Assembly (NCBI GenBank): GCA_033763315.1
Contig: JANRKS010000004.1
Span: 1-13,794, forward strand
Direction: 5' to 3'
Origin: Deltaproteobacteria bacterium
Lineage (GTDB): Bacteria > Myxococcota_A > Polyangia > Fen-1088
DNA: 13,794 bases
Part shown: positions 366 through 13,733 of the stretch, one piece after another
Numbering within the stretch: position 1 is the first letter of the stretch
Layout: the number at the start of each line of letters is the position of its first letter
Position numbers and translations under genes: made by a program
Notes under the pieces: model-generated
What the model saw: the letters and a program-made list of their open reading frames with translations, nothing else
Database searches by the model: none
Told to the model about the DNA's origin: nothing

Positions 366-2138
366 TCACAAAACGATCCGCATACACGTATACGTCGCCC
401 CGTCATCAACACTGTCGCACCTCAACGTTGAGTCACAGCACGTGTCAGCCACGGGATCGCATTTCTGATCCGCCGTCACGCACATGCCGGCGTCTGGCGT
501 TGGCGGTGGGGGTGTGGTGGGTGGATCGCGGACGTCTAAGGTCCAAAACGCGCGGTGGTTGTCTTCGTTGAGGCCTTGGAACTGAAGTCGGAATGCGGGG
601 AAGCTTGGATCTTCGTTTGTGCCCAATTTTTCGGGATCAATGGCAGCCACCCAGATCTGCTGGCGGCCCGCGGGGGACACGACGCCGTATTCGCGTTGCG
701 AATTGAATGCGACCCAAAGTAGATCGCCCGAAGGCGCCCACGTTGGTTGGCTGTTCTCTGTGAGTCCATCGCCCATCGCGTTCGAGACCACTCGATTCGC
801 GTTCACCAATTCGATCGGTGCGCCACCCGCTGAAGGCATCACCCACAATTGCGCTGACAGATCGCCGTGCCCGCCTTTGCCGCGAGAAAACGCAATCCAT
901 TGCGAGTCCGGCGAATGCATGGGGAACAAGTTGCTGCCGCCGGGCGGAGGTGGCATTCCTTTCACAGGCTTGGTGGTCGCCGTAGCCGCAAGCAGAACTT
1001 TCACCGCCCCCCAAGCGCCATTCATGAACGGAATCACCGCAAGGCTTGCAGCGGCTGGCGAATCACCTTTGCCCGTTGAGAATACAACTTGCGTGCCGTT
1101 GGGCGACCAATCGGGGTGAGTCGCCAACGTGGCACCCAAAGGCAGATCCATCTTCTTTGTGCCCGTCACACGATCGAGCATCCACATCTTGCCTCCCCAC
1201 GCCGCCACAACGTTTTCGTTGTCGGGTGAGATCGTGGCAAAGCCATGGCCGCCGGTGTTCGCCACATTCTTCACCAACGGGGTTGGTGGCGCGGCGCGGG
1301 TGACTTCCATGATCCACAAGCCGCCGCCCGATGCTGCCTGCACCGGAGCCAACATGAATTTGCCATCTCGAGATACAACATGGCACGCAACGCATTTCAC
1401 GCTGTCGGTTGGGCTTGCGTATGTCGTCGCTGGTTTTCCGGCGATGTAGTTTTCTGGCTCTGCCGCAGATACGTTCGCGCGGCGAATGCCCGCTGAAGTT
1501 GTGGACCAGTAGAAGATCGCGCCTTCCACCTTCTTCAGCGAGAACCCAAGCGTCACCGCGTCCGAACGCTTCACCACCGCTGCGGCCCCGCTGGTATCCA
1601 GGCCGTCAACGATCCACGAAACGGTTCTTCCCGCGTTTCCGTCCGCTATCAAATGCCACGATGATTCATCCGCCTCCCAACACGCTGTGCCCGCTTTGCC
1701 GGCGCACAGTGGATGGACGCCATCAGTGAACACCGTGACGGTGGTGCCAGGCCCCGTGAAGATCAGGCGATACTCGCTGTTGCCCGTGGCCTTCCACTGG
1801 AACAGCGTGCGGTAGATGTTGCGAGGAAACCGTGTTTGATTGCTTGGGTAAACGATTTGCGGTGCACCTGCGCCCGTTTTGGGATCGGCATTCCAATCCG
1901 TGCCTTGGCGAGGCGCGCCCAAGGTGAAGCTGCCTTGCGGATCCGCCACTGTGGCGCCGCCCGTGGCTCCTCCACCGCCTCCGTTGCCCGCAACGCCATT
2001 GCCGCCCAAAGCGACGGGCACATCAGGGCCTCCATCACCTGACGTTGTGCCGCCGTCCCCCACCTGGCTCGCATTGTCGCTGCACGCCGAAAACAACAGC
2101 ATCGCGCCAAGACAGAACACGTTACGCCGCTGGATCAT
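366..2138 (-). CDS. Lipoprotein with TolB/PD40 (WD40-like) beta-propeller repeats, a CxxCH motif and a C-terminal Cys-rich domain (~590 aa)
   Basis: Preferred start is ATG 2138, preceded by GGGGAG. Signal MIQRRNVFCLGAMLLFSA-C with a lipobox, then a Gly-rich linker. PD40-like repeats: HPDWSPNGTQVVF, FPMHSPDSQWIAF, QPTWAPSG, ATISPDNENVV. CVACH at 1380-1394, a Pro-rich linker and a six-Cys tail. Confidence 0.85.
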   Translation of the reverse strand: MIQRRNVFCLGAMLLFSACSDNASQVGDGGTTSGDGGPDVPVALGGNGVAGNGGGGGATGGATVADPQGSFTLGAPRQGTDWNADPKTGAGAPQIVYPSNQTRFPRNIYRTLFQWKATGNSEYRLIFTGPGTTVTVFTDGVHPLCAGKAGTACWEADESSWHLIADGNAGRTVSWIVDGLDTSGAAAVVKRSDAVTLGFSLKKVEGAIFYWSTTSAGIRRANVSAAEPENYIAGKPATTYASPTDSVKCVACHVVSRDGKFMLAPVQAASGGGLWIMEVTRAAPPTPLVKNVANTGGHGFATISPDNENVVAAWGGKMWMLDRVTGTKKMDLPLGATLATHPDWSPNGTQVVFSTGKGDSPAAASLAVIPFMNGAWGAVKVLLAATATTKPVKGMPPPPGGSNLFPMHSPDSQWIAFSRGKGGHGDLSAQLWVMPSAGGAPIELVNANRVVSNAMGDGLTENSQPTWAPSGDLLWVAFNSQREYGVVSPAGRQQIWVAAIDPEKLGTNEDPSFPAFRLQFQGLNEDNHRAFWTLDVRDPPTTPPPPTPDAGMCVTADQKCDPVADTCCDSTLRCDSVDDGATYTCMRIVL

Positions 2139-2228
2139 GAACGCTCCCCGTAGGTTGAACCAAGGAGCATCGACGGCTTTGAATCGCGGCTTAACGGCGC
2201 ACTGCAAACATGTGGTTCGGGAAGATCT

Positions 2229-4073
2229 TCAAGGCCCGTAATGCAGCACGACGCCGCCCCAGCCGGTGGCCCAAACGCCTGTTGAGCCTCCAGTGATTTT
2301 GTAAAGCGGAGTGGTGGTTGGGGTTGGTGTTTCGCGCCACGATTTTCCATCCCACGAAATGATCAAGCCATTGTCTCCACTGGCCCACACGTCGTCTCGC
2401 CCGCCGCACCAGATGGATAACATTTTGCCTTGTTCAGGCGTCTCCTTAACCAGCCATTGAGCCCCATCCCAGTGGGCCATTCCATTTAACCCCGCGATCC
2501 AAGCGTCATCGCGAGCGTTAACACAAACATCCATTGGATAAAGGTTCTCTGGTAGCGCAGCCGGCACAGCGTTTTTGCCGTCGAAATGCAGCACTGAAGC
2601 GTTGTCGCTTATCAACCAAATGTCGTTCAATGCTGTGCCTGCTGTCTTCACTAGTTGGGTGCCTGCAAGCGCGTGCGCTTTCCATTGTTTGCCGCCTCGC
2701 CAGGTCAGCAGTTCGTGACCACGCACGGCCCAGACCTGTGCACCGTCTGCGCTTGATAAATCATCAATGCGTCCTTGCAACACGCCGTTGCCCCACTGCT
2801 TATGGGTGCGAACCGAGCAGCCCAGCATGCCGCACGCCCAAAGCTGCTTTGTTCCATCCACATGAAAACGGAACTGAGCCAACTCACCACGACCGGCAAG
2901 ACCATCAAGCAACGAATCGTCGACGTGCCAATTCCCATCCTTACGCCGAGCGTGTGCGGCGCTTTCGTCAAACACCCAAACAGCGCCCTGGTCATCCGCC
3001 AGGGGTTGGCGCACTAGCGTGAAGTCAACGGGCCGTATTGTTTTCATCGGTTTGCCACTCTCCTGAAGCATCACGCTGCCATTGGAGCCCACCATCCACA
3101 ACGCTCCTCCGTTGCGCCCCGCCACCGCTTTGATTTGCATCGCATCTGGATAACCCTGATCCTCCCATCCCATCGTTCTTTGCTCCCACACTATGGTGTG
3201 CGAGTCGGTTACAACCGACTCTTGCCAGCGAGGTTTCTTGATGTGCCAAGGTCCATTGCCACCCGTGGCCCAAACATTGTCACGGCCAGTTCCGCTGATC
3301 GCAGTTAGAAACTGTTCTTCAACCGAATGCAGGCTCCATGCCTCGCCGTTCCAATGCGCCATCGTGCGATGGCCGCCGATCGCCCAAACGTCATCCGCGC
3401 CCGTGCCCCAAATGCCAGCCACGTTGAAGTCTTCAAAGGAATGCGTGCTCCATGCGCTTCCGTCAAAGTGCCTGATCGAGCCACGGGCGCCCACATAGAC
3501 GTCTGTCCGAGACGTCCCCCAAACAGCGGTGAACCGGGTGGCTGCATCACGCGCAATCACCGACCATTGCTTATTATCCCAGTGCAGAATCGTCCCGCCG
3601 CGGCTTCTGGGCTTACCATCCACAAGGGTGACGGCAATCGCCCACACGCTGCCGCTATCGCTTCCCCAGATCGCCTTTAGATCGTCTTCGATGGGCGACG
3701 GCACCTTCTTCCAAACATGTCCGTCCCAGTGAAGAATGGTGCCATGCCTACCCACGGCCCAGATGTCATTGCTGCGCGAGCCCCATATGCCATGCAACGT
3801 TTGCCGCGTGGGCGTTGGCAGCACCTCTTCGTGTTTCACACTTAGGTGCACAATGGTACCGGCGCTGCCCGCCGCCCACGCATCGTCGTTTGGCGCCACC
3901 CACACAGCGTTGAGCATGTTGCCGTGCGGAACAGGCAGGCTCCATTTCCACGACCAATCGGTGTGGCGGCTGTGGTGCCATCCACCTTTGCTGGCCACTC
4001 CGATCTTTGCAGACGCACACGCACCAAGGCAGAGGACAGAAAGCAAGGCATAAACGCGGTTTGCCATGTACAT
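2229..4073 (-). CDS. Lipoprotein built of ~40-aa beta-propeller repeats (L..VWG...DVWAVG..G.ILH[WF]DG..W)
   Basis: Start is ATG 4073 or 4067, just after the upstream stop at 4087. Signal RVYALLSVLCLGA-C. Repeats include LHGIWGSRSNDIWAVGRHGTILHWDGHVW, VAGIWGTGADDVWAIG and MLSIWCGGRDDVWASGDNGLIISWDGKSW, a type common in myxobacterial surface proteins. Confidence 0.85.
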   Translation of the reverse strand: MYMANRVYALLSVLCLGACASAKIGVASKGGWHHSRHTDWSWKWSLPVPHGNMLNAVWVAPNDDAWAAGSAGTIVHLSVKHEEVLPTPTRQTLHGIWGSRSNDIWAVGRHGTILHWDGHVWKKVPSPIEDDLKAIWGSDSGSVWAIAVTLVDGKPRSRGGTILHWDNKQWSVIARDAATRFTAVWGTSRTDVYVGARGSIRHFDGSAWSTHSFEDFNVAGIWGTGADDVWAIGGHRTMAHWNGEAWSLHSVEEQFLTAISGTGRDNVWATGGNGPWHIKKPRWQESVVTDSHTIVWEQRTMGWEDQGYPDAMQIKAVAGRNGGALWMVGSNGSVMLQESGKPMKTIRPVDFTLVRQPLADDQGAVWVFDESAAHARRKDGNWHVDDSLLDGLAGRGELAQFRFHVDGTKQLWACGMLGCSVRTHKQWGNGVLQGRIDDLSSADGAQVWAVRGHELLTWRGGKQWKAHALAGTQLVKTAGTALNDIWLISDNASVLHFDGKNAVPAALPENLYPMDVCVNARDDAWIAGLNGMAHWDGAQWLVKETPEQGKMLSIWCGGRDDVWASGDNGLIISWDGKSWRETPTPTTTPLYKITGGSTGVWATGWGGVVLHYGP

Positions 4074-4086
4074 CTGTTCTTGGCGC

Positions 4087-5385
4087 CTACTGCCGGTCAA
4101 GCTGTGGCAAGTGGCCTGTGAGATCCAACGTGCCGCCATTTTTCGTCACGAATGATTTTGCGCCGATGCTATCAACGTCCACGCCAAAAAGACGCGCGAC
4201 GCTTGTCAGCAGCTTGTTGTGTGGTGGCCCCGTGTTGATGACGTCAGTGCCCGTGTTGAACGCCGTGTCTTGCGGCAGGGCGATGTAGCGGCCCGTGGCA
4301 AGGCCCAGCTTGTGGCCACCCAGCATAATTGCGTGCCAAGGAAACGGGTTGTGATCGGGTTGGCCTTCTCTGCCAACCCAAACGACCAGAGTGTTCTCAA
4401 GCAGTGGTGCTCCGTCGCGCCCTTGATGCGTTGATAACGCTTCGCCAAGCCTTGCGACCTGTGTGGCAACAAACGCGTTATACCTTTGCATCACCGCACG
4501 TGCGTTGCGTCCGTCTTCTCCGGGCACGCCGATCCGGTGAGCCGCGTCTTGAGCCAAGTTGCCGGGGAAGGAGAAATCTTGCGACGACGGGCGCGCCAGG
4601 TTCAGAGCGAACACGCGTGGCCCGTCACAGAGCAGGGCGCTTGTGAGCAGTGGGATCGCCCGATCCATCCAAACAGCAAGTCCATCGGTGAGCGACGCTT
4701 GCGGTCTCACATCGATGTTGCAATTCGTCTCTGCCACGATCGCCTTCGCCGCGTCGGTGAACGAGTTCATGGCCAGCACGTTGTTTCCGGAGGCATCGAA
4801 CGTGAACGACGGCCGGCCGATCACCATAACTTCGCGTGCACCCGGCGATGCGTCGAGGCGAAGGTGATGTCCCACAAGCCAATCGATGGAGGGCCCCAGG
4901 GCTCGCGGCGGATCGCCGGGGCGTGCTGAGGGCGAACGCCAATAAGGATGACCCGTCAAAAGCATCATGGGTTCGTAAACGTTTTGGTTCCAGCTGACGT
5001 GATAACCCGCACCCGCAACGGCAACCAATTGCTGTCGCAAAGCAGAGAAGGGCTCAAGCACGGCGCTTCCCAGCACCCCTACCGCTGGCAAAGACATTTG
5101 CTGTCCGTCAGGGACGTCCGGCAGACGAAATGATTCGTTCAGAAAACCGAACTCGTGTGTAAGCAACACAAGACTCAGTGGCTGCGTTGAACCTAAAGGC
5201 CCCGCGGCATCGTTTCGCACGTCCGCGCTGATGGCATCCGCACTGGCATCACCAAATGCGATGCTGGCGTCCATCTGAGCCGCGTCGGGGTTCGTATCGA
5301 AGCTTGGGGCATCGCCATCCTCACAAGCCGAGCCAAACGCAGCAAGCGCGCAGAACAACAACGACGCTTTCTTCATGACAGCCAT
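4087..5385 (-). CDS. DUF1552 (HXXSHH)-family protein, lipoprotein form
   Basis: Family motifs LEPF...LVAVAG, LLTG, GPSIDWLVG, ALLCDGPRVFAL, DGAPLLENTLVVW, AIMLGG..LGLATGRYI and PHNKLLTSVARLFGV. Start is ATG 5385 or 5376. Signal MKKASLLFCALAAFGSA-C. Confidence 0.8.
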   Translation of the reverse strand: MAVMKKASLLFCALAAFGSACEDGDAPSFDTNPDAAQMDASIAFGDASADAISADVRNDAAGPLGSTQPLSLVLLTHEFGFLNESFRLPDVPDGQQMSLPAVGVLGSAVLEPFSALRQQLVAVAGAGYHVSWNQNVYEPMMLLTGHPYWRSPSARPGDPPRALGPSIDWLVGHHLRLDASPGAREVMVIGRPSFTFDASGNNVLAMNSFTDAAKAIVAETNCNIDVRPQASLTDGLAVWMDRAIPLLTSALLCDGPRVFALNLARPSSQDFSFPGNLAQDAAHRIGVPGEDGRNARAVMQRYNAFVATQVARLGEALSTHQGRDGAPLLENTLVVWVGREGQPDHNPFPWHAIMLGGHKLGLATGRYIALPQDTAFNTGTDVINTGPPHNKLLTSVARLFGVDVDSIGAKSFVTKNGGTLDLTGHLPQLDRQ

Positions 5386-6983: not shown

Positions 6984-6989
6984 GATGCG

Positions 6990-7061
6990 AGCGGGAGAAG
7001 GGGGTCGAACCCTCGACGTCCACCTTGGCAAGGTGGCACTCTACCACTGAGTTACTCCCGC
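6990..7061 (-). tRNA. tRNA-Gly (anticodon GCC), 3' CCA not encoded
   Basis: Minus strand GCGGGAG TA ACTC AGTGGTA GAGT G CCACC TTGCCAA GGTGG ACGTC GAGGG TTCGACC CCCTT CTCCCGC T folds into a full cloverleaf with a U discriminator. The next bases are CGC, not CCA. Confidence 0.97.
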
Positions 7062-7421: not shown

Positions 7422-7482
7422 TCGAACGGATTTGATCTTTCGTTGATCGTTTTGATCTTTCGAACGGTTTTGATCTTCGTTG
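7422..7482 (+). repeat. T-rich, GATC-containing direct repeats
   Basis: TCGAACGG(A/T)TTTGATCTT(T)CGTTG at 7422-7445 and 7460-7482. TTTGATCTT at 7431, 7451 and 7469. GATC at 7434, 7445, 7454 and 7472. Confidence 0.85.
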
Positions 7483-8382
7483 TGGCCGTGGTCTGGCAAT
7501 CCCGTTGCTGGTGGGCACGCTGTCTTGGTGGCCCCGCGCGATCAGCTTCGGTTGGTGGAATCTGGCGAGACCTCTGCCGAAGGGGATTCGCGGGGCCATT
7601 GCTCGCGCGTTGAGTTCGTTCGTGGCTTGCGGTGCGAAGATGTGCTCCCGCTACTGCCAGAGCACGCGTTTGATGCATGTGTGACCGATCCGCCCTACGG
7701 CATCGGCATTGCTGATTGGGACGCAGATGTGCCGAGCGTCGAGACGTGGGCGGCTGTGCTTGGTGCGCTCAAGCCTGGTGCTTGGTTGGTTGCGTTTGGA
7801 GCGCGGCGGACCGTGCACAGGTTGGCCACGCGTGTGGAGGCTGCGGGGTTTTGCGTGGTGGACATGGGGGCATGGGTTTACGGGAATGGGCGGCCGCCAT
7901 CGAAGGTGCATTTGAAACCGGCGCATGAGCCGATCTTGATTGCACGCGCGCCGGGGAAGCCCCTGGCCGTGGGTATTGAGGACGCGCGCGTGCCGTGGCG
8001 CGATGATGATGATCGCGTGAGTGCTTCACGGGTGGACAGTCTGCGTGCGCGCACGGTGAAGCGGCGGGCGTATCGCGGATCGCTGGGCGCGCATGGACGG
8101 GATGCGTTTGTGGCGAAGGTGGCGGGGCGGTGGCCGTCAACGGTTATGGCGACCGATGATGAGCTGTTGGGGGATGGGTCGCATGTGTTTGCGGTGCCGA
8201 AGGTGCGCGATGCTGGGGGGCATGTTTGTGCGAAGCCACGCGCGCTGATCGAACATTTGGTGAAGCTGTATGTGCCCGTGGGTGGCGTGGTGTTGGATCC
8301 GTTTGCCGGCAGCGGAGGGGTGGGGGATGTGGCGGCGGCGTTGGGAAGGCGAGCGGTGTTGATCGACGACGGGGCGCGGTGA
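7480..8382 (+). CDS. Site-specific DNA methyltransferase, beta class N6-adenine/N4-cytosine (N6_N4_Mtase family)
   Basis: Catalytic motif IV (DACVTDPPYGIG) precedes SAM-binding motif I (VVLDPFAGSG). Also ALKPGAWLVAF, LKPAHEPILIAR, GRWPSTV and H...KP..LIEHLVK. The true start is uncertain (TTG 7480 or a later TTG/GTG such as 7525, 7528 or 7555). Confidence 0.92.
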   Translation: MWPWSGNPVAGGHAVLVAPRDQLRLVESGETSAEGDSRGHCSRVEFVRGLRCEDVLPLLPEHAFDACVTDPPYGIGIADWDADVPSVETWAAVLGALKPGAWLVAFGARRTVHRLATRVEAAGFCVVDMGAWVYGNGRPPSKVHLKPAHEPILIARAPGKPLAVGIEDARVPWRDDDDRVSASRVDSLRARTVKRRAYRGSLGAHGRDAFVAKVAGRWPSTVMATDDELLGDGSHVFAVPKVRDAGGHVCAKPRALIEHLVKLYVPVGGVVLDPFAGSGGVGDVAAALGRRAVLIDDGAR

Positions 8383-8623
8383 TAGATGATAGCGAGGACC
8401 TTGGCGCCTTGGGCAAATCACCTTGACTGCCACGGCGGTCCTTTACTTCGCTTGAAACTGCCGATGTTTCCGCGCCGATCTGCGTGGTCTTCAGCACAGG
8501 CCCCTTAGCCCTCCTAGCGTCTGATCCACCTCCTCACGATCAAGTCACGGGTGACGCGCGGCTGCCGACATCGACCGCGAACGTGCTGCGGTGAATTCAA
8601 GGCATGAATCGACTGGGCAACTT

Positions 8624-9496
8624 CTAAGAACCCGAAAGGCTGTCAGCGATGCGACTTTGGACCGAAGGCAGCTCATCCCTGGAAAACAGCTTCCAAATCA
8701 GCTCGTTATTGGCATCTCTTGACCCCGCCAATGCGTAATAACAAGCTGTAACCTTTCCAGTTCGGCCAAGTTCATGGGCGGTTGAAGGTGCCAATACCTC
8801 GGGTGCCCCGAGCAGGATGTTCACCTGGGTTTCAGATGGAACACACACAACAATTACGAACGCTGCAATTCCCGAGGCAAGCGCTGAAGAAAACTTCGCT
8901 CCCACTTTTTCGTCAGCGTGCGTAATGAGTTCGTGACGGGCCTCATCCGCCGTTTTGAACCTTGGTCGATGTTTCATAACAACGTCAAGATAGATGTCAG
9001 CTCGGCCGCTTTCCCCAACCAGGAGGTCTGCATCTTTAGGCTTTTGACCTCGTACGCCACAAGGCAACGGCTTCCCAAACTGCTTTACAACGTATGCGCC
9101 TCTATCAAGCAGAATCGACACATATGCAAGCGCCAACACAGACCAGAATTCGGGGTCATGGTGCTTCCAGATACCGTGATGTAAGGGGGAAAAAGCACCG
9201 CGGAAACCAGGAACTAAAGAAAAGCGTTCACAGAAATGGTCGAGTGTGATCAGGATCGAGCGACCAATTCCATTTGCATCGGGACTGCCTGGATGGGAGG
9301 CCATGTAGAGCACATATGGGAGGTTAAGTAGGTGCGAATGTCCTGTTTGCTTTTCGCGATCCTTCTCCATCGCCCTCAATTGTGCTGAAGTCGCGACACC
9401 GGATGGATAGTCCCTGTCGAAGTTGCGTGCGAGATTCGGATGTTGCAGAAGGCGGGCGTTTAGATCGGCGCTAGCGTCTTGATCTGTCGGATCCAT
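8624..9496 (-). CDS. Hypothetical protein (~290 aa) with a possible divergent PD-(D/E)XK restriction-endonuclease-like fold
   Basis: Long ORF with preferred start ATG 9496 after AGGTAAGG. Helix FWSVLALAYVSILL followed by KDADLLV...IYLDVVMK resembles PD-(D/E)XK motifs I-III with substitutions. The ORF is likely real but the fold call is tentative. Confidence 0.6.
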   Translation of the reverse strand: MDPTDQDASADLNARLLQHPNLARNFDRDYPSGVATSAQLRAMEKDREKQTGHSHLLNLPYVLYMASHPGSPDANGIGRSILITLDHFCERFSLVPGFRGAFSPLHHGIWKHHDPEFWSVLALAYVSILLDRGAYVVKQFGKPLPCGVRGQKPKDADLLVGESGRADIYLDVVMKHRPRFKTADEARHELITHADEKVGAKFSSALASGIAAFVIVVCVPSETQVNILLGAPEVLAPSTAHELGRTGKVTACYYALAGSRDANNELIWKLFSRDELPSVQSRIADSLSGS

Positions 9497-9649
9497 AGTG
9501 TTCGCCTTACCTATGGATGCAGTCCCAAATTGCCTTCGATGCCGCATCCTTTAGAGTGTTACGCCCTATTTCAATTGGAAAAGTCAACGGCACCAAGTCT
9601 TCCACCAATGCTTGTCGCCTCCATCGAGATGTCGAAATCGCGCGGTCGA

Positions 9650-10306
9650 CTATTCGCCGGTGTATTCTGCCTCAAGGCGTTTTGCCGCCGCTTCCGCGTA
9701 TGCGAAGGTTGTCGGTGTTGAAACAACGCCTGAAGCAGCCGACCCTCCGGCCACTTCAAGGGGGCGAAAGCGCACTGATCCAATTTCCTTTTCTAACAAC
9801 ATCGCGTGGCCTTCATGACCAGAGCGTCTTAACCGATGGACGATGAAGGCATGCCACGCTGCATCCTCCGGCCGTTGAGGCCACGATTTGTGATCTAACA
9901 GAACGATCCCAACTGAACTGAAAACGGCCATCACGAAAGTGGCGCACGTTAGCCCGACTTCTGACCCACCTAGGACTAGGCCTCCAGCACTGTCGAAATG
10001 GGTTGCCGTGTAAGAGAATCCAAACGGAATCCGACCATCAGCATGGCGTTTCCAAATCAGTCTACATTTTGCTGCTACCTGTTTTGCTCGCTCGGCTGGG
10101 ATGGTATGACGGACCCAAAGGGCATCCGGCCCCGGTGCTTCGCAAGCTAGATCACAATGCCATTTGAGATGAAGCATTCTTAGGTTCGAGCCCTCAGACC
10201 AAGCGATACCACAGTGCCAATAGCGCATATCCTCTCGAACGAACGCCACTCCACATCCTTGCTTGCGAAGGGCGTCGTGCTCCCCGAACAACTCCGCGAC
10301 CCCCAT
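9650..10306 (-). CDS. Circularly permuted papain-like (NlpC/P60 superfamily, YiiX/YaeF/LRAT-type) thiol enzyme
   Basis: His-before-Cys order: YWH31CGI, MLH46LKWH, IPFG and GLTC121ATFV at the start of a predicted helix. This is the arrangement of permuted NlpC/P60 enzymes. No signal peptide. Confidence 0.7.
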   Translation of the reverse strand: MGVAELFGEHDALRKQGCGVAFVREDMRYWHCGIAWSEGSNLRMLHLKWHCDLACEAPGPDALWVRHTIPAERAKQVAAKCRLIWKRHADGRIPFGFSYTATHFDSAGGLVLGGSEVGLTCATFVMAVFSSVGIVLLDHKSWPQRPEDAAWHAFIVHRLRRSGHEGHAMLLEKEIGSVRFRPLEVAGGSAASGVVSTPTTFAYAEAAAKRLEAEYTGE

Positions 10307-10317
10307 GGCAATCTCGC

Positions 10318-11088
10318 CTACAGGCCGGACATCAGCTCGTCAACTTCAGAAGCCGTTCGGGTTTCCAAAGCTTGACGGCGAACTCGCTCTAGGAAAGGTT
10401 CACGACTCGCAACCCGGTCTCTTGCTGGAAGCGATGCAACCAAGAATCCAATCGCTATGAGCAGATCCAGTTTTTTTTGCATGAGCGCATCGAAGACAGC
10501 ATTGATCAGTCCAAACTTTGATTCGCGCATCCAGCGGTCAAGCGTTTCGTAAACCATGTCGAGAGCCGCGTCAACGTCGGATTGGCAAACCCGGTTCACG
10601 TTGCCGAGGAATTCGGCGATTTCACTGCTCTGATCGAACGGGCGTTGGACAATTCGGTTTAAACAAGCCGCGAATGCCGCTATCTGTAAACCCTGTTGGT
10701 CGGTAGATAGTTGATCGAGGCGTTCTACAAAGCGCGTCAATTGAAGAGGACTAAGGAGGTCCTTGAAGATCTCGCTGAGCAACCCTTCTTCGGAAGGATC
10801 AGGGTGAGCCGGGTTGATCCGTGGCGTTGCATCCACTCGATAAGCGATTCTGGGGCACAACTCATCGTTGATTTCAGAACCATCTCTTTCGAAGAAATTG
10901 ATGAGGCTTGCAGCTTCGTCAATCCGCTTATTGTGAGGTTCCGTCCAAGCGCCGACGTCAATAGGCAGACGTGAGGGTGCACTTCGCCACGAGGCCTCAG
11001 AATTCCTGCGACTCTCATCGAAGGCCACCCAGTCGCGATGCGGCTTTCGTGCTAGACGTTCACAGTCCGTTTCACGGGCGGTCGTCAT
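10318..11088 (-). CDS. Hypothetical protein (256 aa) with a probably disordered N-terminus and an alpha-helical C-terminal domain
   Basis: ATGA overlap with the upstream stop (11085-11088) and an 11-nt gap to the downstream ATG. Amphipathic helices such as DVDAALDMVYETLDRWM and LLIAIGFLVASLPAR. Ends DELMSGL. Confidence 0.8.
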   Translation of the reverse strand: MTTARETDCERLARKPHRDWVAFDESRRNSEASWRSAPSRLPIDVGAWTEPHNKRIDEAASLINFFERDGSEINDELCPRIAYRVDATPRINPAHPDPSEEGLLSEIFKDLLSPLQLTRFVERLDQLSTDQQGLQIAAFAACLNRIVQRPFDQSSEIAEFLGNVNRVCQSDVDAALDMVYETLDRWMRESKFGLINAVFDALMQKKLDLLIAIGFLVASLPARDRVASREPFLERVRRQALETRTASEVDELMSGL

Positions 11089-11771
11089 TCAGACTGTTCC
11101 TGGGTTCGAATGATTGAGAACCTCGCATTGTTGAGGCGCCCTTCCAAGCTCTTTTCTTTTTCAATGGCTCGTTCAATGACCTCGCGAAGATCGTGAAGGT
11201 CGGACCCATCCAGCGTGACATAGTAGTCCTTGTCGGCTCCGTCATCGTGGACTTGAAGCTGGAGGGAGTGCGTTATGATGAATGCTGTGGGGCCACTCGG
11301 CACCGCTTCAGAGTATACCGGTCGAGCATCTGTGAATACCCTAGCCTTGTGGAGATGTCGTGGATATTGATAAGCGACGTAGGCTGCCTTTGATGTAACC
11401 CGCAAGGTGTCTAACTGAAGCAGTGAAACTAAATGCGACGTGAAGGCGGGCCACCCTGCAGCGGGCGGATCCATCTTTAGTTCATTTGCAGCAGCCTCCA
11501 GGTCTTTCGCAAGCACATCCGCTTGAATCGCTTCGTTAAAACAGAGCCAATGGAGTGTGACCAACAGCCTGATGACATCTACTAGGGAAGTGTAGTCAAG
11601 CGACACCCTGGATTCTATGGACCTTGCCAGCGCTCGCGGCAGCAAACGAGGTGTGGCAGACTCTAAGGCAGTCCTCAGCTCACTTAAGGAATGGAGATTT
11701 AAGGCCAAGAGACCTTTCAACCTTGGTCGATCGGCCTCGGGAATCGTTAGACCTGAACGGATTTTTGACAT
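11085..11771 (-). CDS. COMMD-like protein (helical N-terminal domain plus COMM-like C-terminal domain), 228 aa
   Basis: About 125 helical residues, then YPRHLHKARVFTDARPV...PTAFIITHSLQLQV.DDG..KDYYVTLDGSDLHDLREVIERAIEKEKSL. The three strands plus long terminal helix match the size and pattern of COMM (HCaRG) domains. Recognised by pattern only. Confidence 0.65.
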   Translation of the reverse strand: MSKIRSGLTIPEADRPRLKGLLALNLHSLSELRTALESATPRLLPRALARSIESRVSLDYTSLVDVIRLLVTLHWLCFNEAIQADVLAKDLEAAANELKMDPPAAGWPAFTSHLVSLLQLDTLRVTSKAAYVAYQYPRHLHKARVFTDARPVYSEAVPSGPTAFIITHSLQLQVHDDGADKDYYVTLDGSDLHDLREVIERAIEKEKSLEGRLNNARFSIIRTQEQSE

Positions 11772-11846
11772 TGGTTTTCGATCCCGCCCTGTTGCCGTAA
11801 TTTAGTAGAATTGATCTGAAGAAACGATACTACAACGTTCTTCGCC

Positions 11847-12173
11847 TTAGTTCGCTTGCTCGTCATCCGGATCAACGAACTCAACTCCGTCGACGGGAAG
11901 GAAGGAAAGATCTTCACCAATTACATCTTGGCAGTGCAGGTCCAGCTGAAAGCAAATCGACCGAATCATTGTTGGCGTCAATCGGTCGTCGTCTGCCATG
12001 TCTGGATATGGTGCGACCCGGTCGCCTTTTGACAGATACTTCACTTCAACCGGACCTCGCGGTCCCATCAGCAAGCTCTTGAGGCTCTTTACTTCCACTG
12101 ATCTGTCGGCACTCTGTAACGCCTTCACAAACTCGCACAGCGTTGGCGCTCGGAAAAACGGATATGCTGCCAC
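11847..12173 (-). CDS. Divergent HicA-like small protein (putative toxin, dsRBD-like fold) with an acidic tail
   Basis: GTG start overlaps the upstream TAG by 1 nt (TAGTG). Helix-strands-helix pattern PTLCEFVKAL...KYLSKG..VAPYP...DRLTPTMIRSICFQLDL. Adjacent to a HicB-like gene. The canonical HicA G-S-H catalytic motif is absent. Confidence 0.55.
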   Translation of the reverse strand: MAAYPFFRAPTLCEFVKALQSADRSVEVKSLKSLLMGPRGPVEVKYLSKGDRVAPYPDMADDDRLTPTMIRSICFQLDLHCQDVIGEDLSFLPVDGVEFVDPDDEQAN

Positions 12174-12502
12174 TACGCGACCCGCAGCTCGGCTTCCACC
12201 CTCGGCGCAGCCGGGATGTTCTGAATACTGAAAGGCAAGGACAGGTCATCCTTCATCTGCCAACCGCTCTCCCATTTGGTCCAATACGTTTGAGGGGCGG
12301 GACCGGGTAAAGTTGCCAGTGGGTTTTCCTTGAGCTCCAATCCCATCGCGAGATGAGACACGAGCGCCTTTTCGACCGCATAGGCCGCGTCTTGTACGGA
12401 TTTCCCTTGCCCAGCTACGTCATGTTGCAGGCACTGTGCTACCCAATAAGGTCCCTCCTTCTGAAGTAGCACGTGAACATTCAATTGGATGATGTGTGAC
12501 AT
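12173..12502 (-). CDS. HicB-like antitoxin-fold protein lacking a C-terminal DNA-binding domain
   Basis: LNVHVLLQKEGPYWVAQCLQHDVAGQGKSVQDAAYAVEKALVSHL fits the HicB N-terminal pattern (three strands, QG-[KE]-[ST]-x-x-[DE]A helix). No HTH or RHH domain is evident in the remaining ~55 aa. Confidence 0.75.
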   Translation of the reverse strand: MSHIIQLNVHVLLQKEGPYWVAQCLQHDVAGQGKSVQDAAYAVEKALVSHLAMGLELKENPLATLPGPAPQTYWTKWESGWQMKDDLSLPFSIQNIPAAPRVEAELRVA

Positions 12503-13133
12503 TTTGGTGTCTCGTAGAACGTTAGATCGGAAGATCTCAGCGTGAAATTAATCGAACGCGGCTATGACCTTCTCCGCTTCGGTCGAAATTGCCACAAGGA
12601 GCCTGGCCGTTCAAGCTTAGTTCCTTACACCTGAACACCTGCGCCCCTTCCCTGAACGCGTCGCGCGGGGTCTCAATCCTCGCTGTCACGCGGCAGGCTG
12701 CCACCGACCTTCGAATGCCCACCGCAATCACCAGCCTCAGATCGCCTCGACGTCGGCCAATGCTGATCTCAATGCATAGGGTCGGCCTCTGGCCTTTGGC
12801 TGTCAGCCGTGAAGGATGGCCTGGACAACGCGGTCGATTTCGACCTTTACCGGCCGCGTCGCGACTCCTTTAGGGTCCCGATGCCTGGATGTTCCCCCAC
12901 CGTGACTTGGTCCTTGCCCACAAGCCGACGGGTTCAGCGCCTCTTGGAGCCCTCGAAACCGAAGTGGCGGATCTAGGTTCACGGATGGCCTAGCGCCCCT
13001 CTGCGCTCACGTGGTGCGGCCGGGCGCCATGCTCGATGGTGCGGGCGTGTGGGGCATCGTTAAACACGTCGACCGTGCCGACTCCTTCCGCCCCCACTCG
13101 CCACGAGGCGACGCCGCACTTTGAACACCGAGA

Positions 13134-13733
13134 TTAGAAGCGCGCATTGCAAAAATGCACTCCGCCTTGCCTTATCGCGCTTGTCAGAACCAAAGCCGTC
13201 CTCGATACCGATCCGCCAGCGGCCAAACGCACCGCCCACCTGCTCTCGGGCAGAAGCGCATCGGGATAGACGCGACATGTTCCGGGTCGGATAGGATCGT
13301 CCGCGCTATACGCCGCCTCAAGCGTATGGCCATAGTGATCGCGCCACTTGTTGCTGTGCACGTGCGGTTCTCCGCACCTATCAAAGACGAAGCATGCGCC
13401 GTCGCCCGACGCGAAGTAGCCGTCAAGCGTGGTGGACTTCCTGGCCACAGGAGGCGGCTCTTGTGGCGAACGCGTGAGGGCAGTTGCTGCCTCGAAGAGC
13501 CGTTCTGTCTTTGCCGCAAGACGACGGATCTCTCGCATTCGTGGCCGCTCAGCGAAACACGCAAGCCGAAGATTCTCCAGCGAACGCACGGCACGACGCC
13601 ACGCCGGCTTGCTCTTCTTCTTCAGGTTGGCGCCGTGTATGCGCGCCCGAATAAGCGCGAAATGAACATCGTCGGTCAGAATCTGAAGATCAGGCGAGAC
13701 TCGCAGCATCCATGCGGTTTCACGGTCTCTCAT
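13134..13733 (-). CDS. Hypothetical protein (~199 aa), possibly frameshifted near the 3' end
   Basis: Preferred start ATG 13733 after GGGGAG..AGGGA. GC-rich third codon positions over most of its length. No family recognised. Confidence 0.55.
   Translation of the reverse strand: MRDRETAWMLRVSPDLQILTDDVHFALIRARIHGANLKKKSKPAWRRAVRSLENLRLACFAERPRMREIRRLAAKTERLFEAATALTRSPQEPPPVARKSTTLDGYFASGDGACFVFDRCGEPHVHSNKWRDHYGHTLEAAYSADDPIRPGTCRVYPDALLPESRWAVRLAAGGSVSRTALVLTSAIRQGGVHFCNARF

Follow-up and report, generated by a model that had tools for sequence, protein, structure and literature searches.

A COMMD-like gene at the head of a recurring helical protein and papain-fold enzyme pair: a candidate modular three-gene conflict system on a low-GC island

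Introduction

Prokaryotic relatives of the COMMD proteins have recently been described by Liu et al. (Nat Commun 2026, PMC13392464). Part of that paper counts 250 bacterial and 111 archaeal COMMD-like members, states that what they do is unknown, draws attention to T6SS-like neighbours in Myxococcota and reports AlphaFold multimer predictions with neighbouring gene products, which gave no COMMD-containing complex. Its main text contains neither the words operon, peptidase, protease, toxin or phage nor any word beginning with 'defen'. In the eukaryotic Commander assembly, peripheral HN domains of the COMM ring bind N-terminal stretches of helical partners, as stated in a section of a preprint (bioRxiv 10.64898/2026.02.02.703414). 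Two further groups are relevant to the locus described here. Circularly permuted NlpC/P60 enzymes with a papain fold are the subject of Xu et al. (2011, PMC3142127), and ternary systems composed of a third component, an antitoxin and a papain-like toxin are outlined in portions of another preprint (bioRxiv 10.64898/2026.10.19.760177).

Gene layout and composition of the island

The window, i.e. the whole stretch of DNA that was analysed, is an entire contig of 13,794 bp from a fragmented genome (40 contigs, 90.85% complete, 4.1% contaminated), and the visible gene context is therefore limited to this contig. The ORF listing contains six co-oriented minus-strand ORFs, designated P1 to P6 (Table 1). 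GC content in 400-nt windows is 0.50-0.56 across the island that carries them and 0.59-0.70 on both sides, with a genome-wide value of 0.606. GC3 is 0.50-0.56 for P2 to P6, 0.63 for P1 and 0.63-0.69 for every flanking gene including the methylase. The island is supported by this difference in composition between P1-P6 and their flanks. No convincing direct repeat was found around it. A consensus scan detected no terminator-like site between the six genes, and the sole minus-strand site of this kind (9729-9760) lies inside P5.

An earlier note on this DNA had described six co-oriented minus-strand ORFs of lower GC, five particular junctions, and a DNA methyltransferase and a tRNA as neighbours. 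The ORF coordinates, the GC and GC3 values and a reading of the sequence agree with each of these points. The cassette had also been said to match no named system, and indeed no PADLOC model matches any of the six proteins at E<=1, nor does any Pfam or NCBIfam model match one of them.

Table 1. Positions of the genes, junctions and neighbouring features in the window.
Feature	Position	Strand	Remarks
P1	12173-12502	-	109 aa, ATG start
P2	11847-12173	-	108 aa, GTG start
P3	11085-11771	-	228 aa
P4	10318-11088	-	256 aa
P5	9650-10306	-	218 aa
P6	8624-9547	-	307 aa
P6 from second ATG	8624-9496	-	290 aa, the length of stored protein P0165
Core trio P3-P4-P5	9650-11771	-	conserved unit
P1/P2 junction	12171-12175	-	TAGTG stop/start overlap
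P2-P3 junction	11772-11846	-	75-nt gap, AT-rich
P3/P4 junction	11085-11088	-	ATGA overlap, P4 start on P3 stop
P4-P5 junction	10307-10317	-	11-nt gap
P5-P6 junction		-	153-nt gap with P6 start at 9496; 102 nt with start at 9547
Low-GC island with P1-P6	8400-12600 (approximate limits)	.	GC by window
tRNA-Gly(GCC)	6989-7061	-	
N6_N4 DNA methylase	7480-8382	+	PF01555, E 2.1e-23

Proteins of the conserved trio

P3 is a prokaryotic COMMD-like protein with an HN helical domain followed by a COMM domain. A profile of 74 homologues matches PDB 9q6a, 'COMMD-like protein MBK5214510', with an E-value of 6.5e-37, and the AF2 model (pLDDT 94.7) shows seven helices, then three strands and a long helix. In a Foldseek search with this model, 9q6a_B ranked first (E 3.9e-12, TM 0.75) and was followed by human COMMD chains (E 3e-6 to 4e-5). 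At E<=1e-3, 3250 representative clusters make up the family.

P5 is a thiol enzyme with a papain fold of the circularly permuted NlpC/P60 (YiiX/LRAT-like) type. Across 14 sequences the invariant positions are H31, H50, the segment G118-LTCATFV-V125, W142, R145, D148, R179, R181 and E184. Both His31 and His50 precede Cys121 in the chain, and in the AF2 model (pLDDT 90.2) C121 begins the helix 121-131. VIA-align matched the model to YiiX (2if6, Z 10.2), 3kw0 (Z 8.4) and TseH (Z 6.9), and more weakly to RID (Z 5.7), Aichivirus 2A (Z 5.6) and PLAAT4 (Z 5.2). Foldseek returned no PDB match at E<=0.001; P5 has no Pfam match at E<=1, nor does any member of the 14-sequence family match a related Pfam family. 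The most likely activity is that of an acyl-hydrolase, acyl-transferase or peptidase, and P5 is proposed to be the effector.

P4, located between the two, is probably a helical protein, judging from the look of its alignment. Its N-terminal region is variable and is followed by a conserved C-terminal domain of ~110 residues ending in Gly-Leu (alignments A4 and A7). G255 and L256 are invariant in alignment A7, and GL plus 0-2 residues forms the C-terminal end in 55 of 62 distinct P4 C-termini. Neither a Pfam or PDB match nor a DNA-binding domain was detected. An N-terminal motif, defined post hoc, occurs in 8/14 COMMD-linked P4s and in 0/19 other P4s; P4s sharing a head type are also more alike N-terminally, a similarity confounded by their closer kinship. 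P4 is proposed to act as an adaptor or inhibitor of P5.

The names that the earlier note gave to all three proteins hold up. The COMMD-like assignment is supported by profile, predicted fold and Foldseek, and the permuted papain-like enzyme with Cys121 by the invariance of this residue, the AF2 model and VIA-align; the helical neighbour is sustained by the appearance of the alignment.

An obligate pair with an interchangeable head gene

The search of metagenome contigs yielded 209 P5 relatives, and neighbourhoods were counted for the best 80 of the 209, many of which are short and some near-duplicates (62 distinct P4 C-termini among 71). P4 and P5 form an obligate, strictly linked pair. Of the 80 loci, 71 have a P4 homologue immediately ahead of that of P5, among them 53/53 of those with at least 700 nt of upstream DNA, while the other nine have <=330 nt; 57 of the 71 called gaps measure -4 to +19 nt. 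Right after P5, the strand usually switches or an unrelated gene comes next.

The gene ahead of the pair is modular and interchangeable. Among the 48 loci with 1500 nt or more upstream, 16 have a COMMD-like gene in this position. Other heads are an unnamed family, here called c1 (10 loci), TIGR04255 (6 loci and a Rhizobium plasmid), a ParA-like ATPase (loci L055 and L065) and an AAA_21/MAD3-like ATPase. Head types are clustered on the P5 tree, with 6 changes compared to 16.8 after shuffling. On the COMMD tree, P3 of the window joins type-B loci (99/97 support), outside the main clade of P4-P5-linked COMMD-like genes, and the P4-P5 label requires at least 3 changes over well-supported branches. 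This architecture therefore has more than one origin; the modules have been re-assorted repeatedly. In the trees, the branches of the window's three proteins (P3, P4 and P5) are long or atypical.

COMMD-like genes of other loci are usually followed by pairs different from P4-P5. In all 20 other loci a co-oriented gene directly follows the COMMD-like gene, and in 19 a second one does; in the remaining locus (L004) the contig ends first. These followers are YA and DUF7689 in 11 loci, YB and ZB in 5 and other pairs in 4. In one locus counted as YA and DUF7689 (L087), YA itself is uncalled, and in L118 a single ORF fuses the COMMD-like HN half to YA.

Genomic neighbourhood and distribution

By our own reading, a defence or mobile-element family lies <=3 genes away in 12 of 30 scanned loci. 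Examples are HmaB/HmaC, type I R-M, a SIR2 protein, ParE, an integrase and IS elements, and the copy on a Rhizobium conjugative plasmid adjoins multiubiquitin-ThiF-DUF6527 genes and IS110. Several loci are flanked by housekeeping genes (urocanase, hemC/D, metH, yidC). P5 relatives also occur in four viral contigs, three of them ~40 kb long with the match <=~3 kb from the contig end. The distribution is sporadic, with 2/401 genomes in Myxococcota and 7/351 in a second phylum, each count including the genome of the query itself.

Other genes of the island

As judged by homology searches, P1, P2 and P6 are not conserved partners of the trio and would be co-resident passengers. None of the 80 P5-relative loci contains a homologue of any of the three (phmmer, E<=1e-3). 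The earlier note had combined all six genes into one functional unit, to be checked by co-occurrence of the homologues: P4 accompanies P5 and a COMMD-like head recurs, as reported above, while this result gives no support to P1, P2 and P6 as members of the unit. The note is borne out in singling out the last gene as the one with the loosest link.

P1 may be antitoxin-like. It has an E-value of 0.019 to PHROG 12841 and three weak relatives in 300 other genomes, two of which match Pfam DUF7387. Its N-terminal 50 residues look, by eye, like short HicB-type proteins; the label 'HicB-like' is weak. The label 'HicA-like' for P2 finds no backing, the protein having no family match and a best PDB match of E 0.42. 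The 300 other genomes of the phylum sample contain no convincing relative either, the single match (E 0.009) being interrupted by an internal stop. The P2 call depends on a GTG start. P6 has four homologue clusters of 42-58% identity, all named hypothetical and one from a Polyangia MAG. It has a conserved stretch, KDAD...D.Y.D.VMKHRP. No PDB, Pfam, NCBIfam or PADLOC match was obtained, and the designation 'nuclease-like' is unsupported.

Interpretation

The functional unit is probably a three-gene operon, P3-P4-P5, on a small horizontally acquired island, with P1, P2 and P6 as passengers. The trio is most likely a modular conflict system, for which we infer physical binding, toxicity, a trigger and a role in defence along the following lines. 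P5 would damage the cell once released, and P4 would act like an antitoxin by holding it inactive; the conserved Gly-Leu tail of P4 may be placed in the P5 active site or close to it. By homology, P3 would form an octameric or decameric ring that serves as sensor or scaffold and holds P4-P5 via the variable N-terminal region of P4. The ring would release or activate P5 on a trigger, for example infection by a phage. Points that weigh against this reading are the housekeeping flanks of several loci, the lack of a PADLOC match to P3, P4 or P5, the multimer predictions of Liu et al., the long or atypical branches of the window's three proteins, the post hoc N-terminal motif, the confounding of N-terminal similarity by kinship, and the short or near-duplicate loci among the 80. 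The recurring unit of a COMMD-like, a helical and a papain-like protein provides a testable lead on the function of bacterial COMMD-like proteins.

The closest competitor, though rather improbable, differs from this explanation mainly in biological role: P4-P5 would keep mobile DNA stable as a toxin-antitoxin addiction module, with the head gene as an antitoxin chaperone or regulator that senses no invader. SecB is an antitoxin chaperone in TAC systems. The strict pairing, the small helical gene before the enzyme, the copies on a conjugative plasmid and near IS elements, integrases and ParE, and the viral contigs all fit an addiction module, and three-component toxin-antitoxin systems offer a precedent in the part of the preprint available for comparison (bioRxiv 10.64898/2026.10.19.760177). 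It is disfavoured by the lack of a detected DNA-binding domain in P4, by heads that include ATPase classes typical of defence and by neighbours such as Hma, type I R-M and SIR2. That all six genes constitute a single six-component defence operon is very unlikely. Co-orientation, common low GC3, the P1/P2 overlap and the consensus scan for terminators are in its favour, but P1, P2 and P6 are missing from the 80 loci, spacers precede P3 and P6, in other loci P5 is usually followed by a change of strand or an unrelated gene, and P2 lacks relatives.

Two proposals remain. If P5 were an antibacterial effector that is exported, comparable to the type VI secretion effector TseH or to the amidase Ssp1, with P4 as its immunity protein, COMMD-like proteins would be tied to secretion, in line with the published synteny in Myxococcota. 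Apart from the fold match to TseH, this would accord with the T6SS amidase 4bi3 (Foldseek E 0.18) and with part of PMC13392464, which mentions VgrG, PAAR and DUF2169 folds in the vicinity of COMMD-like genes from Myxococcota. Against it, VgrG, PAAR, DUF2169 or other secretion families were found neither in the window nor among 124 neighbours of the 30 loci, and the top structural matches are cytoplasmic YiiX-type proteins. Immunity genes are usually located downstream of the effector gene, whereas here the helical gene precedes the enzyme gene. The chance of this explanation is slimmer still than that of the six-gene operon. Unlikely, but less so than either, is P6 as the restriction endonuclease of a Type II R-M pair with the methylase, unrelated to the trio. 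The methylase gene converges on that of P6 with 241 nt between them, its product matches Type II models (PADLOC PDLC03371, E 3.6e-22), and the acidic/lysine stretch KDAD...D.Y.D.VMK could be a variant PD-(D/E)XK site; restriction enzymes are typically without a family match. However, P6 has no nuclease family or structure match, and its GC3 of 0.50 differs from the 0.69 of the methylase, so that the two were probably not acquired together. The three-gene operon remains the preferred reading.

Comparison with known systems

P1 and P2 resemble HicAB as two small overlapping genes, but they lack HicA or HicB matches in Pfam and NCBIfam, and the weak relatives of P1 point to DUF7387. hicA is usually the first gene, and the P1/P2 order is thus reversed. 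With PADLOC PDC-M32 the relation is indirect: one type-B second gene matches PDC-M32A (E 6.2e-4) and one type-B third gene PDC-M32B (E 2.6e-4), weak matches of one sequence each among those scanned, whereas P3, P4 and P5 do not match. PDC-M32 hence concerns type-B partners of other COMMD-like genes, not the genes of the window.

P5 shares its fold with the YaeF/YiiX-like and LRAT-like permuted NlpC/P60 enzymes, as well as conserved His residues before the catalytic Cys and the position of this Cys at a helix start, without belonging to these families at the sequence level (no Pfam match). P5 has an obligate upstream helical partner, which is not known to be described for YiiX. The proposed logic of the trio is that of the ternary 'ParA plus toxin-antitoxin' apoptosis-like systems, in the subtype with papain-like peptidase toxins and as far as the preprint excerpts describe them, in which a third sensor or switch component captures a two-gene toxin/antitoxin-like unit; two P4-P5 loci have a ParA-like ATPase in the same place. 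In contrast to those systems, the third component here is a COMMD-like ring protein, and elsewhere TIGR04255 or c1.

P3 also matches the human COMMD chains of the eukaryotic Commander/CCC complex, a COMMD decamer with CCDC22/CCDC93 (PDB 8f2r, 8p0w). Unlike in Commander, P3 would by homology form a homo-oligomeric ring, and P4 is a putative binding partner of P3. The closest relatives are the prokaryotic COMMD-like proteins (PDB 9q6a/9q6c/9q6d), whose HN and COMM architecture P3 shares and whose solved Flavobacteriaceae member it matches in both profile and fold. Compared to the members counted in the cited part of PMC13392464, the family found here is far larger and heads a tight three-gene operon.

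The low-GC island and its surroundings

The genes P1 (first) to P6 (last) lie on contig C4, which the window covers entirely, in a genome of 7.6 Mb and 40 contigs (90.85% complete, 4.1% contaminated, GC 0.606). The earlier note had described six minus-strand, low-GC open reading frames, and these were recovered with the same junctions, which from P1 to P6 are TAGTG, 75 nt, ATGA, 11 nt and 153 nt. For the P5/P6 gap, 153 nt applies only if P6 starts at its second ATG (9496), a choice that gives 290 amino acids, the same length as the stored protein P0165. GC3 is 0.50-0.56 in P2 to P6 and 0.63 in P1, compared to 0.63-0.69 in all flanking genes including the methylase; the six genes therefore occupy an island of about 4.2 kb that is set apart by its composition.

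Coordinates of the features in the window and in related loci
Sequence	Feature	Coordinates	Strand	Detail
Window	P1	12173-12502	-	ORF call
Window	P2	11847-12173	-	ORF call, GTG start
Window	P3	11085-11771	-	ORF call
Window	P4	10318-11088	-	ORF call
Window	P5	9650-10306	-	ORF call
Window	P6	8624-9547, or 8624-9496 from second ATG	-	ORF call
Window	N6_N4 DNA methylase	7480-8382	+	adjoins island
Window	tRNA-Gly	6989-7061		about 1.3 kb from island
Window	14-nt inverted repeat	8566-8579 / 12829-12842		13/14 complementary
Window	18-nt direct repeat (family D6)	7422-7439 / 7460-7477		17/18 identical
Window	215-aa ORF at contig end	13134-13781	-	GC3 0.64
L035	split AAA_15/AAA_21 ATPase	1519-1980 and 2011-2787		two ORFs
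L035	ORF with P5 homologue	2744-4030	+	open for 428 aa
L035	P4 homologue	2787-3359		other frame
L055	SIR2_2/ThsA-like, ParA-like, P4, P5	1-6633		one strand
L081	722-aa protein with P4 homologue	2582-4750	+	ends 1 nt before P5 homologue
L097	TIGR04255-P4-P5	4466-6639		NZ_CP104160.1
L118	COMMD-YA fusion	1492-2205	+	237 aa
L118	DUF7689 gene	2216-2647	+	after the fusion

Direct repeats bounding the island were not found in a repeat scan of the window. The 14-nt inverted pair brackets the low-GC island almost exactly and may be due to chance, because 18 such inverted pairs occur in 7.3 kb. Just upstream of the methylase start, the 18-nt direct repeat, TCGAACGG[A/T]TTTGATCTT, is present in two copies that start 38 nt apart and could be an operator or the remnant of an insertion. 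The tRNA gene was considered as an integration site and rejected: the island lies on its 5' side, beyond the methylase, and a tRNA-derived repeat was not seen. No sigma-70-like promoter was detected in 8300-13200, where 2.3 are expected by chance, with a consensus that may not fit this phylum. The open reading frame at the contig end is host-like in GC3 and is without a match in Pfam, PADLOC, NCBIfam and PHROGs.

Searches of P1 to P6 against Pfam, PADLOC and NCBIfam (E ≤ 1) and against PHROGs returned nothing meaningful, the methylase alone being recognised. The cassette had been proposed to match no named anti-phage system, and this is confirmed for PADLOC-DB 2.0 at E ≤ 1, where P1 to P6 have no match and the neighbouring methylase alone matches MTase_II models.

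P3 is a prokaryotic COMMD-like protein

The identity of P3 is deduced from a profile match to a solved family member, its AF2 fold and Foldseek. When 74 homologues were combined into a profile, its positions 2-214 matched PDB 9q6a_A ('COMMD-like protein MBK5214510'; E 6.5e-37). [quoted passage not shown] Foldseek ranked 9q6a first (TM 0.75), the top matches being 9q6a and 9q6c, followed by human COMMD chains, and the COMMD-like assignment made from the sequence alone thus holds. On the basis of homology, P3 is assumed to assemble with itself into a ring of eight or ten subunits.

A word-indexed protein search with P3 returned the query itself and no relatives; HMMER, run in full against 1.84 billion representatives, gave 3250 clusters at E ≤ 1e-3, 1195 of them at E ≤ 1e-10. 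The window genome contains one COMMD-like copy. Its nearest relative comes from a Polyangiaceae MAG, and one P6 homologue comes from a Polyangia MAG. The COMMD-like family was described in 2026 with a list of 250 bacterial and 111 archaeal members and solved structures of homo-octameric and homo-decameric rings (PMC13392464). The function is given there as unknown, T6SS-like folds are reported within 10 kb of Myxococcota COMMD-like genes, and complex prediction with the products of neighbouring genes yielded none that contains a COMMD protein. The main text is free of the words operon, peptidase, protease, toxin and phage and of any word that starts with 'defen' (PMC13392464).

P5 is a permuted papain-like thiol enzyme

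An alignment of P5 with 13 homologues (35-45% BLASTP identity) revealed invariant H31, H50, GLTCATFV (containing C121), W142, R145, D148, R179, R181 and E184. In the AF2 model (pLDDT 90.2), C121 is placed in the first turn of helix 121-131, with H31 and H50 on or beside the preceding strands. VIA-align comparison with 48,161 chains gave YiiX (2if6) at Z 10.2 (rmsd 3.5 over 152 residues) and 3kw0 at Z 8.4, the only two matches above the level of about 8 that this tool regards as meaningful. The lower rows are all papain-like: TseH (6.9), RID acyltransferase (5.7), Aichivirus 2A (5.6), PLAAT4 (5.2) and, at the end, DeSI (4.0) and CLN5 (3.2). These structural matches belong to the 'permuted' branch of the papain-like superfamily, in which the histidine precedes the cysteine. 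Foldseek found no PDB match for the P5 model at E ≤ 0.001, and its weak rows mix papain-like and unrelated proteins; no Pfam, NCBIfam or PADLOC family matched P5 at E ≤ 1, nor did any of the 14 aligned homologues match a papain-like Pfam family.

P5 thus shares the YiiX/LRAT-like fold without membership of the family at the sequence level, and its predicted structure identifies it as a circularly permuted papain-like (NlpC/P60) thiol enzyme, in keeping with the proposal of the earlier note. Several of the matched permuted enzymes are described as acting on acyl or lipid groups and not on peptides (PMC3142127, PMC7387801, PMC9012467), so that P5 might be a peptidase, an acyl-hydrolase or an acyl-transferase.

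P4 and P5 form an obligate pair

The P5 alignment was used to scan JGI metagenome contigs, which gave 308 stretches, 209 of them encoding a relative, and the best 80 of these 209 loci were retained. Linkage was counted on six-frame open reading frames with a P4 profile iterated three times. In 71 of these 80 loci, the gene immediately ahead of P5, in the same orientation, is a P4 homologue; P4 is present in all 53 loci with at least 700 nt of upstream sequence, and the nine loci without it have at most 330 nt. The gap between the two genes as called ranges from -4 to +19 nt in 57 of the 71, the outliers being mostly over-extended ORF starts. P4 and P5 are therefore an obligate pair, with the small partner first and the enzyme second. 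Downstream of P5 there is usually a strand switch or an unrelated gene.

What P4 homologues have in common is limited to a domain of about 110 residues at the C-terminus, helical by the look of its alignment; the N-terminal regions vary. Near-duplicates among the 71 loci reduce the set to 62 distinct C-termini, 55 of which end in Gly-Leu followed by 0-2 residues; P4 of the window ends exactly in ...SGL. The relatives of P4 and P5 have no relevant Pfam family and no solved structure detectable by sequence, and profiles of P4, of the unnamed head family c1 and of TIGR04255 matched no solved structure. A short N-terminal motif, defined after the fact, occurs in 8 of 14 COMMD-linked P4s and in none of 19 with other heads. 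The idea that the N-terminal region is a head-specific docking part, argued from its higher similarity within the same head type (mean 15.4 versus 8.4 bits), was set aside: kinship confounds the comparison, because C-terminal similarity is likewise higher within head types (71.6 versus 37.9 bits).

Two loci deviate from the common form. In L081, a 722-aa protein carries the P4 homologue as its C-terminal part and is preceded by a 794-aa ORF without Pfam or PADLOC match; this may be a fused or enlarged form of head and adaptor. In L035, the frame containing the P5 homologue covers the whole P4 homologue and is probably an over-extended ORF call and not a fusion. P5 relatives were also observed on four viral contigs, three of them about 40 kb long with the match some 3 kb or less from a contig end; the same scan gave no P6 or COMMD-like relatives.

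P1, P2 and P6 stand apart from the core

The proposal that all six genes form one functional unit did not survive the comparison of neighbourhoods, which sustains the pairing of P4 with P5 (53/53) and dissociates the remaining genes: homologues of P1, P2 and P6 never co-occur, being absent from all of the best 80 P5 loci (phmmer, E ≤ 1e-3). Among 300 further genomes sampled from the phylum, P1 has three weak relatives, two of them matching Pfam DUF7387, and a HicB-like fold is possible. P2 had been called HicA-like and is without family or convincing relative, its open frame and overlapping start being all that marks it as a gene. Neither protein matches HicA or HicB in Pfam or NCBIfam at E ≤ 1, and phmmer searches of the PDB returned nothing for P1 and MTH1895 alone (E 0.42) for P2.

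Four homologue clusters, all annotated 'hypothetical', were found for P6. They share an acidic/lysine stretch with invariant D157, D167, D171 and K175; compared to the D...(D/E)xK signature of PD-(D/E)XK nucleases, the spacing is D-x3-K. No match exists in Pfam, NCBIfam, PADLOC or the PDB, and an ESM Atlas search with a P6 homologue returned unnamed clusters only. P6, adjacent and convergent to the methylase, could be the endonuclease partner of that enzyme in a Type II restriction-modification pair; in GC3, however, it resembles the island (0.50) and differs from the methylase (0.69).

The head gene is interchangeable

The gene preceding P4, referred to as the head, is COMMD-like in 16 of the 48 loci in which at least 1500 nt precede P5; in all, 17 COMMD-headed P4-P5 loci were identified, of which 13 are distinct. 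The head is a member of the unnamed family c1, one similarity cluster, in ten loci, a TIGR04255-family protein in L030, L069, L076, L077, L079, L083 and a Rhizobium plasmid copy, a ParA-like ATPase of the KGGVGR type in L055 and L065, and an AAA_21/MAD3-like ATPase in L035. Upstream of the frame with the P5 homologue in L035 lies an AAA_15/AAA_21 ATPase split in two ORFs. The alternative heads, c1, TIGR04255 and ParA-like included, show no relation to COMMD-like proteins by hhalign (probability <1%). P4-P5, unmatched by any model of Pfam, NCBIfam or PADLOC, is thus an obligate module that is also joined to TIGR04255, ParA-like and other heads.

A tblastn search of plasmids gave one match for P5 and nothing for P3 or P6. 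The match lies on the conjugative plasmid pCB3060_2 of Rhizobium sp. CB3060 (L097), where a TIGR04255-P4-P5 trio, annotated as TIGR04255 family or hypothetical only, directly follows a multiubiquitin / ThiF-type E1 / DUF6527 cluster and precedes IS110 and ISNCY transposases. In L055, and likewise in L059, a 1484-aa SIR2_2/ThsA-like protein, a ParA-like KGGVGR ATPase with a weak PADLOC PDC-M28B match, P4 and P5 are encoded on one strand with small gaps, an arrangement that may be a four-gene system.

Other COMMD-like genes have other partners

With a narrower COMMD alignment, a survey limited to a single genome for each species uncovered 12 further COMMD-like loci in Polyangiaceae, Planctomycetota, Acidobacteriota, Binatia, KSB1, Armatimonadota, Rhodospirillaceae and others, which were combined with six loci from a second phylum and two from the phylum of the window. 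In all 20, the COMMD-like gene is directly followed by a co-oriented gene and in 19 by a second one, the contig ending first in L004; a COMMD-like gene heads a tight three-gene operon in every locus examined. None of the following genes is a P4 or P5 relative, and the second (YA, YB) and third (ZA, ZB) genes of the two recurrent pairs show no relation to P4 or P5 by hhalign. The distribution is sporadic (2 of 401 sampled Myxococcota genomes and 7 of 351 of the second phylum, each count including the genome of the query).

YA together with a Pfam DUF7689 protein, which has conserved Cys and His residues, occurs in 11 of the 20 loci, DUF7689 being matched by all eight third genes scanned. The pair of YB and ZB occurs in five loci, with one member each weakly matching the PADLOC candidate PDC-M32A/B (E 6.2e-4 and 2.6e-4), and four loci have other downstream pairs. 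The COMMD-like/YA/DUF7689 trio was seen in L088, L089, L091, L092, L094, L096, L087, L002, L115 and L117, mainly Acidobacteriota MAGs, with a short ORF only ahead of DUF7689 in L087. YA carries the motifs HP[SA]YQ.IIGMG and HWFWAL and a conserved aromatic C-terminus. The DUF7689 motifs (YNC[IV]AWA ... HMARQ ... SKLG ... EDI.H) suggest that this protein, of which no mention was found in the literature searched, is likely a Cys/His enzyme. In a further locus, L118, one ORF ahead of a DUF7689 gene joins YA (E 3e-39) to the N-terminal half, with the HN domain, of a COMMD-like protein (E 1.1e-13 over profile positions 6-116; 4.2e-16 for the ORF). This fusion hints that the products of the head and the second gene may act together physically.

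Re-assortment and genomic context

Head types are strongly clustered on the P5 tree (34 rows), with 6 changes compared to a shuffled mean of 16.8, and the COMMD-linked P5s form one 17-row group whose support of 90/80 is below the star threshold of the tool. The 32 rows of the COMMD-like tree exclude duplicates, the truncated L010 and the L118 fusion. In this tree, ten proteins linked to P4-P5 group together as a clade (96/95); P3 of the window groups instead with two loci of the YB + ZB type (99/97), one of them from a Polyangiaceae MAG, and the P4-P5 label requires at least three changes across well-supported branches. The combination of a COMMD-like protein with P4-P5 thus appears to have arisen on more than one occasion, subject to the long branches of the window's proteins, and such repeated assembly argues for functional coupling and not for inherited adjacency alone.

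The neighbourhood of 30 loci was scanned (124 neighbours, and a further set against PADLOC). Within three genes, a defence or mobile-element family was present in 12 of the 30, a classification made by the author's reading; other loci are flanked by housekeeping genes.

Defence or mobile-element families within three genes
Locus	Neighbour
L029	HmaB/HmaC directly upstream
L038	type I R-M and Mutator transposase
L055	1484-aa SIR2 protein
L035	AAA_15/21 ATPase
L040	ParE
L022	integrase
L066	IstB
L076	IS91 transposase
L043	RadC and DUF3871
L051	methylase fragment and FtsK
L060	UvrD-like helicase
L005	GHKL ATPase

A probable three-component conflict system

The analysis establishes what kinds of protein P3 and P5 are, that P4 and P5 are an obligate pair, that the head varies and that the modules have been re-assorted. 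P3, P4 and P5 follow the layout of three-component toxin-antitoxin-like systems, in which a constant two-gene pair is joined in the same operon by a variable third component, here COMMD-like, c1, TIGR04255, ParA-like or AAA_21. The trio is most likely such a conflict system, built from undescribed parts. P5 would be a harmful thiol enzyme that antitoxin-like P4 holds in check, perhaps through the conserved C-terminal Gly-Leu tail, and the COMMD-like ring would serve as a sensing or scaffolding head. The ring might bind the variable N-terminal part of P4, in analogy to eukaryotic COMMD proteins, whose HN domains are described as binding the N-terminal regions of CCDC22/93, and a trigger would then free or activate P5.

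It is conceivable, and as a whole rather unlikely, that COMMD-like rings are the hub of widespread modular three-gene conflict systems, with docking, release, ancestry and the Gly-Leu tail all included. The ring would dock swappable cassettes of adaptor and enzyme (P4/P5, YA/DUF7689, YB/ZB), short N-terminal peptides of the adaptors binding the HN domains as CCDC22/CCDC93 thread the eukaryotic Commander ring. Infection would cause the ring to release or activate the enzyme, and P5 might even act on the C-terminal Gly-Leu of P4 as an end to be processed or transferred. If this were true, the COMMD scaffold of eukaryotes would have its ancestor in a scaffold of bacterial immunity.

The conserved modular trio provides prokaryotic COMMD-like proteins with their first consistent genomic partners and makes the question of their function experimentally concrete. 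Should the defence reading hold, one more scaffold of eukaryotic cell biology would be rooted in bacterial conflict systems. Neither the place of COMMD-like genes at the head of a compact three-gene operon whose downstream pair can be swapped nor P4-P5 as an obligate module with varied heads was found in the literature searched. The closest published logic is that of the ParA ternary systems, which combine a 'third component plus toxin-antitoxin' and include papain-like toxins (bioRxiv 10.64898/2026.10.19.760177).
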